Of a stretch of DNA of 64,000 bases, positions 2,998-10,116 are shown piece after piece; positions within the stretch are counted from its first letter, which is position 1; the number at the start of each line of letters is the position of its first letter. The notes below the pieces were generated by a model, which ran no database searches, was not told where the DNA came from, and worked only from the letters and a program-made list of their open reading frames with translations. The stretch spans positions 1 to 64,000 of IMG/VR virus record IMGVR_UViG_3300046535_001151. One strand, given 5' to 3'. This DNA is from a virus. Made by a program: the position numbers and the translations under genes.

Positions 2998-3110
2998 TAG
3001 CCGACTCCCATCAGCGGCAGCAAATGTAAGGTGCCCGGCGTCGGCGGCGTCGAGCCGACCGCTTGCGCGTAGAGCGCGAAATAGCCGCCCCCAAAGGGAA
3101 AGCCCCCCAT
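2997..3110 (-). CDS. 37-aa small virion-associated peptide
   Basis: MGGFPFGGGYFALYAQAVGSTPPTPGTLHLLPLMGVG*; exactly fills the gap, with stop/start overlaps on both sides. Confidence 0.5.
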   Translation of the reverse strand: MGGFPFGGGYFALYAQAVGSTPPTPGTLHLLPLMGVG

Positions 3111-3676
3111 TAGGCGACCACCTCCTGCCGAAGCAGGCCGCACCGCTGCTCAACCAGCGGAATGTAATCGTAATGCCCCGGTTGCATGGACAACCGATCC
3201 GGCGCCCATGCCGACGGCAGATCCTCAATCGGCAGGTCGAGGCGCGTCTGCGGATACGACAGCCACGTCATAATCCGCTCCGTCTCACGTTTGTAGACGT
3301 GATCCTCGCCGTAGACCTGCCGATACTGATCGAGCACCTGGATCGTGCGCTTCGGGAAGATTGACCCCCAGCCGAGCAGCGCGATCCGGCTCGTGGCATA
3401 GGACGCCAAGTGCGATGGCTTCATGGCGCACGTAATGCGGTTCGGTTCCGCCGCGGCCAGCAACTCCGCTATCGGTGCAAGACAGTCGTCATCCTGGTAA
3501 TACAGATAATCGTGCTGCGCCTTGGCGAAGAGGTCCTGCTTCCGGTGCGGGCTGTCGCAGTTGGTGAGAAACAGGCACTCCCCGAAGCCCACCGCCATCA
3601 CGCGGTCCACGATCACCTGCGGATAGACGGGATCCTTCGTGATCAGAGCGCAGGAGACGTTACGCGGGTTTAGCAT
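3110..3676 (-). CDS. Short GT-A (family 2-like) glycosyltransferase
   Basis: AQHDYLYYQDDDC DxD motif following a beta strand; lies in glycosylation cluster. Confidence 0.55.
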   Translation of the reverse strand: MLNPRNVSCALITKDPVYPQVIVDRVMAVGFGECLFLTNCDSPHRKQDLFAKAQHDYLYYQDDDCLAPIAELLAAAEPNRITCAMKPSHLASYATSRIALLGWGSIFPKRTIQVLDQYRQVYGEDHVYKRETERIMTWLSYPQTRLDLPIEDLPSAWAPDRLSMQPGHYDYIPLVEQRCGLLRQEVVA

Positions 3677-4265
3677 ATGTCTCAGTCATGCGGTGACACG
3701 GCACACAAAGCGTTCTTCCGTTTCGAACATCCCATAGCCGATCACATTGGAGAGCCGCCTCGATTGAGGTGACCCTGCATTCATCTAATATTTTAGCGAA
3801 TGGATAAATGTGATCGGCATGTAGATCCGCGCCTGTGATTCCGCACTTCAAACAGGTATGGTTGTCCCTCGCGTAGACAGCCTTGCGCCATTCACGGTAT
3901 TCGAATATCTGCCTGATTTGTCTGCTGAGGCGAGTCTTTCCGTCCTTCCAGTTCCAATGCTTTGGTCCTTTTACGTTGAGGCCGCGAAGACGGCGCGCCT
4001 CGCTGCTTAGATTCATTGATCTACCCATCCGAGCAGCGCTCATCTTTGCCTTCGTGGCGTCAGACATTGGCGCTCTCATCCGGCCGGATAGACTCATCTT
4101 CTTTCTTGTTTCTTCACTTGGAATGCGCCCGGATTTACCCACCAAAGCGGCAGCTATCTTGGCCTTCCACTCTGGAGACATCGGCGGCCTTTTCTTGCCG
4201 CTCCAAGGACCTAGACCCTTCTTCCAGTAACCGTCGTTTCCGGGCTGACCGGGCTGCAGGCTCAT
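3660..4265 (-). mobile_element. Free-standing HNH homing endonuclease with NUMOD3 DNA-binding repeats
   Basis: SEETRKKMS / SDATKAKMSAARMG (NUMOD3); CLKCG...LHADHIYPF...NGRTLCVPCH; ATG at 4265 overlaps upstream TGA. Confidence 0.85.
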
Positions 4266-7370: not shown

Positions 7371-8257
7371 GTGCGCAGAAAGAGCACGCCGTCGTTATCC
7401 GCCGTCTCCGCCATCCGCTTCCACTGATCCGCGTTCTTCTGCCAGCGGGGATTATTGGACCCGTCCCCTGCCAGTTCCGCCATGAACAGCACCGCTTCCT
7501 TGAAGCGAGGATTGATGATCAGGCATTGCACCAGCGCATCCCGCGCATCATCCGGCATGTGCAGCGCCCAATAGACCCGGGACATCGTCAGGAAGGCTTC
7601 GGCCTTCTCCGCGAGGAACCGGGACTGCTGGACGTAGCGCCCGAGCATCACCAGGGCTTGGTCATACTGGCCCCGGTAGAAGTATTCCCGGCCTAAATAG
7701 AACCGCTCGCGGATGCAATCGGGCCGATCCGCCACTTCCTTCTCCAGAATCCGCATCGAGCGCAGGGGATCCAGGGTGTGGGCCGGCGAATAGCCGTAGG
7801 TCAGTGTCACCGCGCCCACGTCCTCGCCCATCACGGAGATATGGTTATGAATCGCGCCTTCCCACCAGACATTCGGGGAGCGCAGAAAGAGCCGGGGGAA
7901 CCAGAAGTGGGACGGCGGGCCAGATTCGGCCGTCATCTTGACGTTGACCGCCATAAACCCCTTCGCCACCGCTTCGCGCACCGCGCTGAAGGGACAGGTC
8001 AGGTATTCATCGGCGTCAATCGAGAGCACCCAGTCGCCCGTGGCCTTGCTGAGCGCATGGTTCCGCGCCTTGGCGAAGTTGTCCTCCCAGACGTAATCCG
8101 TGAAGACCTTGTCCGTGAACTGCTGCGCAATCTCGATGGTGCGATCCGTGGAGCCTGTATCGCAAATGATAATCTCGTCGGCTTCTTTCACCGACTCCAG
8201 ACAGCGGGCCAGCACCGCCTCTTCGTTCTTGCAAATCATCACCACCGAGACGCGCAT
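7367..8257 (-). CDS. GT2 glycosyltransferase with C-terminal TPR (SunS/SgtA-type protein O-glycosyltransferase)
   Basis: SVVMICKNEE..LARCLES, DTGSTDRT, W.DNFAKARN, DWVLSIDADE, WEGAIHN, FYLGREYF TPR; start overlaps the collagen gene stop (TAATG). Confidence 0.9.
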   Translation of the reverse strand: MRVSVVMICKNEEAVLARCLESVKEADEIIICDTGSTDRTIEIAQQFTDKVFTDYVWEDNFAKARNHALSKATGDWVLSIDADEYLTCPFSAVREAVAKGFMAVNVKMTAESGPPSHFWFPRLFLRSPNVWWEGAIHNHISVMGEDVGAVTLTYGYSPAHTLDPLRSMRILEKEVADRPDCIRERFYLGREYFYRGQYDQALVMLGRYVQQSRFLAEKAEAFLTMSRVYWALHMPDDARDALVQCLIINPRFKEAVLFMAELAGDGSNNPRWQKNADQWKRMAETADNDGVLFLRT

Positions 8258-10116
8258 TAGCCCACACCCTTTGACAAGAGCAGCCACTTGTTAATCGAGT
8301 TCGCCGTCACATACCGGAAGGACAGCCCAATCGTCTGATTGGTGGTCGTCACCGCCGGCAACGTCACGCCCAACGTGTTGGCTAAGTATCCACCAGCCGA
8401 GGTGCTCCACGTAATGCCTTTCTGCGTGCCGGTGCAGAGAATCAGCATCTCGAGCCACTGGCCAGCCGTGGGCGAGCCCACCGGGGCCCCCATGACGGCG
8501 GTGATGGCCAGCGTCGAGAGGATGTAGAGATCCGTCGTGCTCACATCAGGGATCGGCGTCTGTGTCGAGCCCTGCGTGAAAATCCTCGGGATCGCCGGAT
8601 TGAAGCCGGCACCCGTTGAACCAGTTGGGCCGGTCGGACCCGTCGGTCCGGTGGGACCTGACGGCCCGGTTGGTCCGGTGATGCCCGTCGGCCCAGTCGG
8701 TCCAGTCAACTGCGCGGCGGTGCCTTGCGGGCCTGTCGGACCCGTGGGTCCAGTTGGGCCGGTCGGCCCCGTCAGTTGCGCCGCCGTGCCTTGTGAACCA
8801 GTGGGTCCCGTCGCCCCGGTGGGTCCAGACGGCCCAGTAATCCCAGTCGGACCCGTAATGCCAGTCGGCCCTGTGAACCCCGTGCCCCCATTGCGGGCAA
8901 AGTTGAACACGCACGCTTCGGCGTTCGACGGCAGCGCGGCGCCGGCCTCGTAGACGCACTGAATCTCTTGGTAGCCAGTCCGTGCGACTTCGGTCGAGAC
9001 GATGAACACGTTGACCGTCGTATCCGTGTTGTCGTTCGACTTGATGAACACATACCCCGGATTGCTCTGCGCCGACTGGAAGACCACACCGACGCTGTTG
9101 CCAGAGGCGTCGAGGTCATCCATCCAGATCTTCGTGATGTTGGCGAGCGTCGGGCTGTTGTAGCGGAAGTTCCCGCTCCCCGGATCGCTGTCACCCGTGC
9201 TGGTGCTGAAGTTGTAGCGCAGGCCACCCTTGTCGCCTTGCGAGCCGGTCGGACCCGTGGGACCAGTCAATCCAGTTGGGCCGGTCGGGCCGGTGAGTTG
9301 CGCCGCGGTGCCCTGTGCGCCAGTAGGACCGGTGATGCCCGTGGGGCCGGTAATCCCCGTCGGGCCCGTCGGACCGGTGGGACCAGTCAGTTGCGCGGCT
9401 GTGCCCTGAGCACCGGTGGGTCCCGTCGGACCGGTGGGCCCAGTGAGTTGTGCAGCCGTCCCTTGAGCGCCCGTCGGGCCGGTCACCCCCGTGGGGCCGG
9501 TGGGTCCCGTAATCGCCGTCCCTTGCGCCCCTGTGGGGCCTGTGGCCCCGGTGGGGCCGGTGAGTTGAGCAGCGGTCCCTTGAGCGCCCGTGGGACCTGT
9601 GGGACCGGTCGGGCCCGTGAGTTGCGCCGCCGTCCCCTGCGGACCAGTCGCGCCTGTTGGACCGGTCGGGCCCGTCAGTTGCGCAGCGGTCCCCTGGGCG
9701 CCGGTCGGACCCGTGGGACCACTGGGGCCCGTGACCCCGGTATGCCCCGTGCTGCCGGTTGGGCCAGTGGGCCCTGGCAGGGCGGCTTCAATGTCTTGCA
9801 GCAGATTGGCGGTAATCGCCAACGCCACCAGATCGCCCACGAGGATCGCCCGGTTCCCGTTATTCGTGACCGCATAGGGCCGCGCCGCCACCGTGAACAC
9901 ATCCCCCGTGAGGCCCGTGACCCGCAGAATCTCGGCATTCGTGGGATCGGGCATCGTGCCGAGCGCCCATGCCACGAGGTCATAGCCTTGCGTGCCGGGA
10001 TTCGGGAAGCGGGCGCCCTGTCCCGCCGTGACCGTAAACGTCGTGCCGGAGAGTGCCGGGGAGGGCGCGACCGCTATTGCACTGACGGCCAGATCAACGT
10101 GGGGATCGAAGGCCAC
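8257..10116 (-). CDS. Collagen-like tail fibre/virion appendage with (Gly-Xaa-Thr) repeats
   Basis: Two GPT-dominated collagen blocks with eight GTAAQLT interruptions, separated and flanked by globular domains; lies in virion module. Confidence 0.85.
8608..9776 (-). repeat. Coding tandem repeats: collagen blocks (~8608-8890 and ~9230-9776)
   Basis: 9-bp periodic GGN-CCN-ACN with synonymously diversified codons. Confidence 0.9.

Follow-up and report, generated by a model that had tools for sequence, protein, structure and literature searches.

A collagen-like tail fibre gene and an adjoining cassette of candidate fibre-glycosylating enzymes in an uncultured soil phage

Introduction

What do genes for sugar-transferring and sugar-tailoring enzymes do directly behind a collagen-like tail fibre gene, within the virion genes of a phage? 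The question is raised by positions 3110 to 10116 of a stretch of 64,000 nucleotides (the window), which is the first 64 kb of the 76,271-bp virus record IMGVR_UViG_3300046535_001151. The record represents an uncultured soil phage, and its sequence is present in soil and rhizosphere metagenome runs of 2023. An initial annotation, made from the letters of the window, had proposed that this phage decorates its own fibre with a multi-sugar glycan through a complete, fibre-dedicated pathway. On balance we favour the core of that proposal, a late-expressed module by which the phage would glycosylate its own fibre through cytoplasmic O-glycosylation. The points in its favour come from sequence comparison: the cassette enzymes are soluble, the solved relatives of the leading enzyme modify proteins or peptides, the cassette is linked to collagen genes and absent together with them, its enzymes are fused in various pairs, and they evolve under purifying selection.

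Results

The fibre gene heads a tightly packed operon in the virion block

From position 11447 down to position 1, every gene lies on the minus strand. Within this array, in the virion block, the collagen-like fibre gene and the six genes downstream of it are packed closely together as one operon, given here in reading order:

8257..10116, minus strand: collagen-like tail fibre, 619 amino acids (aa); Pfam Collagen and PHROG tail fibre families
7367..8257, minus strand: GT2-TPR glycosyltransferase, 296 aa; PF00535 and tetratricopeptide repeat (TPR) families
6321..7370, minus strand: PIG-L/LmbE-type de-N-acetylase (residues ~1–185) fused to a class I S-adenosylmethionine-dependent methyltransferase (~187–349); PF02585 and Methyltransf_11
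5503..6327, minus strand: DUF6625 protein, 274 aa; PF20330, divergent GT-A-like fold
4262..~5536 (start uncertain), minus strand: nucleoside diphosphate (NDP)-hexose C-methyltransferase of the TylC3/TcaB9 type, 424 aa; Methyltransf_14 and PDB 4rv9
3660..4265, minus strand: NUMOD3-HNH homing endonuclease, 201 aa; NUMOD3, HNH_2 and phrog_589
3110..3676, minus strand: minimal GT-A glycosyltransferase, 188 aa, the last gene of the cassette; fold from AlphaFold 2 (AF2) and Foldseek

The sequence TAATG joins the fibre stop to the start of GT2-TPR, the GT2-TPR stop and the PIG-L start share ATGA, and the PIG-L fusion overlaps the DUF6625 gene by 7 nt. Further downstream, the C-methyltransferase and HNH genes again share ATGA, and the HNH gene overlaps the 188-aa gene by 17 nt; GTGCTGA is also among the stop/start overlaps of the cassette. 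A scan of the region for consensus promoters and terminators returned fewer sites than shuffled sequences did, with no excess of terminator-like sites. The portal and large terminase genes lie upstream at 18–24 kb, placing the fibre-cassette block inside the virion module, and genes resembling P22 gp10 follow downstream of the cassette. The genes listed in the initial annotation were thus recovered, all on the minus strand at these coordinates, as were the TAATG overlap and the position within the virion module; the list had passed over the 201-aa NUMOD3-HNH gene (3660–4265) between the C-methyltransferase and the short GT-A gene.

A threonine-rich collagen fibre with a conserved C-terminal module

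The fibre matches PHROG tail fibre families with E values down to 1e-53 and Pfam Collagen with 84.5 bits (cut-off 27.2, E 4e-24). Its repeat comprises 82 G-X-Y triplets in 11 runs of 5–12 triplets each. Of these triplets 41 are exact GPT, Thr occupies the Y position in 70% and Pro the X position in 56%, in agreement with the (Gly-Pro-Thr)n fibre described initially. An N-terminal domain (residues 1–114) is followed by collagen (115–299), a middle domain (300–409), a second collagen segment (410–504), and a Ser/Thr/Pro-rich linker with a conserved C-terminal domain (505–619, window 8260–8601). Residues 1–114, 300–409 and 505–619 gave no Pfam or PDB match by sequence. The repeat is broken by eight regularly spaced QGTAAQLT interruptions, which suggest periodic kinks or register shifts of the triple helix; eight such interruptions per fibre are found in both collagen fibres of the contig (window 8800–9780; L001:13300–14800).

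The C-terminal module, with the consensus PRVxSTTSxATPTP...F.YVTANSxNKW, is conserved more highly than any other part of the fibre, at 93% identity between the two copies on the contig versus 65% overall. It co-occurs with the extended cassette (PIG-L, DUF6625 and small GT-A) at every adequately sampled locus, including locus L035, where a distance of 4.4 kb separates it from the collagen gene, which is on the opposite strand. A profile of the C-terminal domain recovered 5,806 clusters with E values of 1e-10 or better from a library of 1.84 billion proteins, nearly always at the protein C-terminus, and F.YVTANSxNKW looks like the signature of an undescribed, very common fibre-end domain. The module would be either a docking site for the cassette enzymes or itself their target, and this choice is the chief uncertainty within the glycosylation reading. 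A complex prediction of GT2-TPR with the module scored 0.00 and speaks neither for nor against.

Enzymes of the cassette

In the longer open reading frame (ORF) of the GT2-TPR gene, PF00535 is matched at residues 14–96 (E 1.8e-22) and TPR_2, TPR_14 and TPR_1 at residues 196–272; the DAD motif at 81–83 is invariant. The best solved relative is GmaR (PDB E 2e-25 over residues 3–95), followed by SunS/ThuS (E 4e-11, residues 7–208). The top NCBIfam model, SunS (TIGR04195), gives 51.2 bits against a cut-off of 350, so the enzyme is not a member of that family. It is proposed to be an initiating protein O-glycosyltransferase. No membrane helix was found in the cassette enzymes (maximum 19-residue hydropathy 1.32).

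The next product carries a PIG-L domain (PF02585, 34.9 bits, cut-off 28.2; best NCBIfam match BshB1) with the motifs PHDDD at 7–11 and HPHH at 101–104, joined to a methyltransferase half (Methyltransf_11, E 1.3e-8) in which the LGCG motif is present. In L014 and L028 deacetylase and methyltransferase are encoded separately. The deacetylase-methyltransferase fusion named in the initial annotation is thereby borne out, and its NDP-sugar C-methyltransferase likewise: that protein matches Methyltransf_14 (E 1e-54) and PDB 4rv9 (E 7.5e-65, residues 7–416, the full length), solved 3-C-methyltransferases aligning across the whole protein. Being absent from the second copy on the contig and from L026–L031, the C-methyltransferase is an accessory gene of a variable slot. 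A paralogue, 33% identical, lies elsewhere in the same phage at 48003–49343.

The DUF6625 protein (PF20330, E 1.7e-23) is predicted with a mean confidence (pLDDT) of 84.8, and its top 50 Foldseek matches are all GT-A folds (best WrtF, E 6.5e-5, TM 0.39), with template modelling (TM) scores of only 0.35–0.39. We propose that it is a second glycosyltransferase with a divergent GT-A-like fold. The family agrees with the earlier label of a DUF6625-like glycosyltransferase; the enzymatic part of that label leans on this weak fold match. We found no mention of DUF6625 in the literature searched. The 188-aa protein has no Pfam family match; its model (pLDDT 91.7) yields significant Foldseek matches to GT-A folds only, the best being EXTL2 (TMq 0.60), and a DDD motif at 62–64 is invariant among 10 sequences, consistent with the short GT-A of the initial annotation.

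The 201-aa endonuclease is recognised by NUMOD3 (28.7 bits, cut-off 20.4, E 1.3e-6), HNH_2 (21.7 bits, cut-off 21) and phrog_589 (E 1.5e-12). It is missing in ten close relatives and in the second copy, marking it as a strain-specific insertion in the variable slot.

Linkage of the GT2-TPR gene to collagen genes among relatives

IMG/VR holds 540 relatives of the GT2-TPR enzyme. For a linkage census, the best 76 loci were clustered at 80% identity, those whose flanks each reach 4 kb or more were retained, giving 35 lineages, and a collagen ORF was defined as one with at least 12 triplets. A same-strand collagen ORF lies within 3 kb in 24 of the 35 lineages and within 2 kb in 19, and the collagen genes have a median of 68.5% Thr at Y. 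When only the 31 lineages whose flanks contain a collagen gene are considered, the 24 cases inside 3 kb correspond to a binomial p of 7e-6 against uniform placement, a rough control since the fibre region is home to both gene types and the lineages are related. The initial annotation had suggested a search for synteny of the two gene types across phage contigs, and in the census the linkage recurs.

Comparison across the flanks involves four neighbouring genes:

10938..11447, minus strand: 169-aa gene of the virion module that precedes each fibre module; conserved in L007 and L047–L049
10118..10936, minus strand: 272-aa gene directly upstream of the fibre, variable between modules; 58% identical to its counterpart in the second copy
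1864..~2997, minus strand: P22 gp10-like head-closure/nozzle protein, N-terminal half; phrog_578 E 1.8e-61, start from comparison with L055
3-1700, minus strand: second P22 gp10-like gene, downstream of the cassette

The 169-aa gene has no Pfam, PHROG or NCBIfam match. The stop codon TAA of the 272-aa gene is separated by 1 nt from the GTG start of the fibre, and the gp10-like gene at 1864..~2997 marks the resumption of core virion genes past the cassette. In ten close relatives the genes run fibre, GT2-TPR, PIG-L::methyltransferase, DUF6625, C-methyltransferase, small GT-A, gp10-like. L048 and L049 retain the upstream 124-aa, 169-aa and 272-aa genes and have neither a collagen gene nor a cassette. 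The extended cassette is limited to a GT2-TPR subclade, roughly at 50% identity or more, plus L035, and within that subclade the fibre always has the same C-terminal module.

Among GenBank phage isolates, a tblastn search with GT2-TPR found no close relative (best 27–35% over partial lengths), and blastn of the region against GenBank phages gave short collagen-repeat matches only. Contigs of genome assemblies contained a single GT2-TPR relative, on a 39.6-kb contig that is labelled a Saccharibacteria metagenome-assembled genome and is probably phage; no collagen gene is present at its GT2-TPR locus. In a 527-kb viral contig (L034/L129, IMGVR_UViG_3300005613_000001), a GT2-TPR::methyltransferase gene is directly followed by that of a 1,357-aa collagen protein with 201 triplets and 65% Thr at Y.

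A second, diverged copy of the fibre-cassette unit on the contig

Outside the window, contig positions 69609–76271 (L001:9609–16271) repeat the unit in diverged form. Its genes there are the 169-aa gene, truncated by the end of the contig, one of 271 aa and that of a 711-aa collagen fibre, then GT2-TPR, PIG-L::methyltransferase, DUF6625 and the small GT-A, without C-methyltransferase and without HNH. The contig has no collagen-like genes other than those of the two fibres, and behind each of them stands a cassette of its own. The four shared enzymes are 81–89% identical in protein sequence between the copies, with a ratio of nonsynonymous to synonymous divergence (dN/dS) of 0.08–0.10 at a dS of ~1, indicating that purifying selection acts on each of the four in either copy. 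The two versions of the 169-aa gene (10938–11288 and 75919–76269) are 100% identical over 116 aa and differ by synonymous changes only (dS 0.13). The step from this dS to that of ~1 beyond it marks an abrupt boundary of recombination or gene conversion where the variable fibre module begins. What looked like a remnant of the C-methyltransferase in copy 2 was rejected, being the 3′ end of the DUF6625 gene in another frame.

Downstream of copy 2, ORFs of 120, 206, 131 and 709 aa stand in place of the gp10-like pair; PHROGs gave no function for them, and relatives of the 709-aa ORF have nothing further in common with the contig. Per-run contigs from three runs span the junction between the copy-2 small GT-A and these genes; one of these runs carries no flag as a possible source. 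Both ends of the contig are natural assembly breakpoints: the left end falls in gp10C, where all relatives have collagen-repeat ORFs, and the right end in the repeated 169-aa gene. Exact-pattern and protein scans of metagenome contigs found nothing for the left end. The two copies probably lie on one molecule. Copy 2 might instead be an assembly wrap-around from a strain variant, which would require a variant without gp10-like genes and is less likely than two modules in one genome.

Fusions, a variable tailoring slot and mobility

The cassette enzymes occur fused in various pairs. GT2-TPR is joined to PIG-L in L035 and P0120, to the methyltransferase in L033 and L034 and apparently to the small GT-A in L029; PIG-L is joined to DUF6625 in L027, and the methyltransferase to the small GT-A in L014 and L030. 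These combinations indicate that the enzymes belong to one pathway.

The interval between the DUF6625 and small GT-A genes differs from locus to locus. It holds the C-methyltransferase and HNH genes here and is empty in copy 2; in L027 it contains a GDP-mannose 4,6-dehydratase, a reductase/epimerase and a methyltransferase, and in L026 a reductase, a methyltransferase and another HNH gene. HNH endonucleases of differing families are found in or beside the cassette in separate lineages (window 3660–4265, L026:10187–10576, L032:8472–8996), and such endonucleases may drive the exchange of tailoring genes.

Two complete phages bear on the mobility of the whole unit. G002 (IMGVR_UViG_3300047444_000168; 43,174 bp, terminal repeats) shares with the contig the 10-kb block from the gp10-like genes to the fibre (window 1–10116) at 57–99% protein identity, and elsewhere only a handful of scattered ORFs at 36–76%, a case of strong mosaicism. 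G005, a complete 77-kb phage, has the cassette alone in common with the contig. Because the backbones of both are otherwise mostly unlike that of the contig, the fibre-cassette unit moves between backbones. Within the G002 block the C-terminal half of gp10 is far more diverged (57%) than its neighbours.

Proposed pathway and alternatives

The analysis establishes which genes are present and how they are arranged, their folds, motifs and fusions, and the purifying selection on them; the individual chemical steps, the target residues and any benefit to the phage are our inference. The soluble GT2-TPR enzyme would hold the unfolded or assembling fibre by its TPR domain and add a first sugar, probably HexNAc/GlcNAc (an N-acetylhexosamine such as N-acetylglucosamine) by analogy with GmaR and SgtA, to Thr or Ser in the Gly-Pro-Thr repeats and/or in the Ser/Thr/Pro-rich linker ahead of the conserved C-terminal domain. 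The PIG-L domain would then take the N-acetyl group off the transferred sugar, the reaction that the related enzymes BshB, MshB and PIG-L carry out on GlcNAc conjugates, and the methyltransferase fused to it would methylate the same sugar. The DUF6625 enzyme and the 188-aa GT-A may lengthen the glycan, one of them using a 6-deoxyhexose tailored by the enzymes of the variable slot. In this phage the slot would supply a C-methyltransferase acting on a host-made NDP-4-keto-6-deoxyhexose, and in relatives a GDP-mannose dehydratase, a reductase and an O-methyltransferase. The cassette and its fibre would travel together, as one mobile unit, between phages with unrelated backbones. This specific order of steps is tentative, and we consider it rather doubtful in its details.

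Several observations weigh against this pathway or narrow it. No cassette gene encodes an enzyme for synthesis of the NDP-4-keto-6-deoxyhexose or for reduction of the C-methyltransferase product, so the pathway is not complete in the sense of the initial annotation. The first 100 residues of the C-methyltransferase contain only Cys21 and Cys61, two of the four cysteines that form the zinc site in the N-terminal domain of TcaB9, the partner positions being Thr and Gly. The similarity of the DUF6625 fold to GT-A is weak (TM below 0.4). The fibre region houses both gene types, and their linkage may partly reflect shared neighbourhood and shared descent. No collagen gene is present in the flanks of 4 of the 35 lineages, and in 7 it lies only beyond 3 kb; the GT2-TPR family is therefore not limited to collagen substrates, and in L033 and L036 the enzyme gene adjoins those of other Ser/Thr-rich structural proteins. 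L055, which has the closest gp10-like genes, carries a small Thr-rich collagen ORF yet no cassette in the 8–10 kb examined on either side, so Thr-richness alone is no signature of a nearby cassette.

The same observations bear on where the sugars would go. The cassette could glycosylate a virion protein at sites other than the GPT threonines, namely the fibre linker or C-terminal domain, the products of the genes starting at 10118 or 10938, or the gp10-like nozzle. The constant company of the C-terminal module and the extended cassette, L035 included, speaks for this alternative, as does the high conservation of the module; some GT2-TPR lineages without nearby collagen adjoin Ser/Thr-rich structural proteins, several neighbouring ORFs contain 20–21% Ser+Thr, and in mycobacteriophages the C-termini of capsid and tail-tube subunits are glycosylated, as cited in PMC12619734. 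Against it, SgtA, which has the same architecture, modifies Thr within collagen repeats (PMC7157674), collagen is the recurrent neighbour of GT2-TPR in the wider family, also at loci that have neither the C-terminal module nor the extended cassette, and the family of the C-terminal domain, with its thousands of clusters, is far bigger than that of the cassette. We take this alternative seriously and nevertheless hold it to be unlikely as a full account. The idea of a decorated fibre in the initial annotation therefore stands as far as the GT2-TPR architecture, solubility, collagen linkage, joint absence in L048 and L049 and the fusions carry it; that the GPT threonines are the sites is less secure, the linker and C-terminal domain being equally good candidates.

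Targets outside the virion fit less well. Remodelling of a host surface glycan or glycoprotein, for superinfection block or release, with the fibre region merely tolerating cargo, would agree with the classical tie of phage glycosyltransferases to serotype conversion described in reviews, with the role of fibre regions as hot spots of accessory genes (PMC10202952) and with the cargo-like shifting of the cassette between backbones. The products, however, are all soluble, and neither a membrane-bound enzyme nor a flippase nor a polyprenol-linked step is present; translation of the cassette is coupled to that of the fibre inside a late operon flanked by essential virion genes; cassette and collagen gene are jointly present or jointly absent; and the nearest characterised enzymes act on proteins or peptides. 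We regard a host target as very unlikely. Hypermodification of phage DNA with a tailored sugar, to which the paralogous C-methyltransferase at 48003–49343 might point, is hard to reconcile with a cassette that sits in the late virion block and not among replication genes and whose linkage is to collagen genes. We know of no DNA glycosylation system that features a TPR substrate-binding domain or a PIG-L deacetylase, both of which would be untypical there, and a DNA target appears barely credible.

Returning to glycosylation of the fibre, a bolder version is conceivable, more speculative still than the order of steps. The locus would be a self-contained, horizontally mobile glyco-fibre unit of soil phages, composed of a fibre with its C-terminal module, GT2-TPR, deacetylase and two extending GT-As around a tailoring slot that is swapped with the help of homing endonucleases. 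The two fibres of this phage would then carry different glycans, one with a C-methyl-branched sugar and the other without, as a programmable glycan coat for host recognition or for escape from glycan- or protein-directed defences. If fibres are sugar-coated by cassettes that travel with them, the adsorption, stability and recognition of many environmental phages would partly be set by a glycan that the fibre sequence does not reveal; the families are large, with 540 enzyme relatives in IMG/VR and several thousand clusters of the fibre C-terminal domain. The system could also offer enzymes for site-specific O-glycosylation of collagen-mimetic peptides and a possible reason why prokaryotic and viral collagens are rich in Thr. 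Since it is small and soluble, it can be tested directly in Escherichia coli.

Comparison with known systems

The literature searched contains no published description of a phage-encoded glycosylation system for collagen fibres. Collagen-like or fibril surface proteins bearing multi-sugar, methylated glycans with unusual deoxy-sugars, made by dedicated gene clusters, occur in Bacillus (BclA), mimivirus and chlorovirus. The likeness to these systems is one of description, and they differ in their enzymes and hosts and in their setting on bacterial spores or in viruses of eukaryotes.

In the literature searched, experimental evidence for virion glycosylation by phage enzymes concerns only the capsid and tail-tube proteins of some mycobacteriophages, whose glycosyltransferases, encoded in the structural region, decorate their own virion (Freeman et al. 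2023, cited in PMC12619734). The present locus resembles them in encoding glycosyltransferases in the structural region, with the phage's own virion proteins as the proposed target. The targets there are capsid and tail-tube C-termini, and among what is reported of those phages we saw no collagen fibre, TPR enzyme, PIG-L deacetylase or C-methyltransferase.

GmaR, the best solved relative of the glycosyltransferase domain, is a cytoplasmic flagellin O-GlcNAc transferase of 637 aa from Listeria monocytogenes (PMC3150276). The glycosyltransferase domain precedes the TPR region in both enzymes; the phage enzyme ends after that region and lacks GmaR's anti-repressor domain (351–637, ~290 aa), which binds MogR, and the substrate of GmaR is flagellin rather than a collagen-like protein. 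SunS/ThuS, the second-best solved relatives, match over a longer stretch and are peptide S-glycosyltransferases that modify Cys of small bacteriocin peptides.

SgtA of Clostridioides difficile transfers beta-O-GlcNAc from UDP-GlcNAc onto Thr of BclA3 collagen-repeat peptides; it consists of a GT-A domain followed by four TPRs, and its gene adjoins bclA3 (PMC7157674), in line with the initial annotation. By published domain layout, the phage enzyme shares with it a soluble GT-A domain followed by TPRs and a gene beside that of a Thr-rich collagen-like protein. Unlike SgtA, it is phage-encoded, lies downstream of a tail fibre gene to which it is translationally coupled, is shorter (296 versus 358 aa), and is followed by a deacetylase::methyltransferase, two more GT-As and a sugar C-methyltransferase. 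A system of the SgtA-BclA3 kind is already known; to it the locus adds a multi-enzyme extension, the conserved C-terminal partner on the fibre, the swappable tailoring slot with homing endonucleases, and a pair of diverged copies, each next to one of the sole two collagen genes of the contig.

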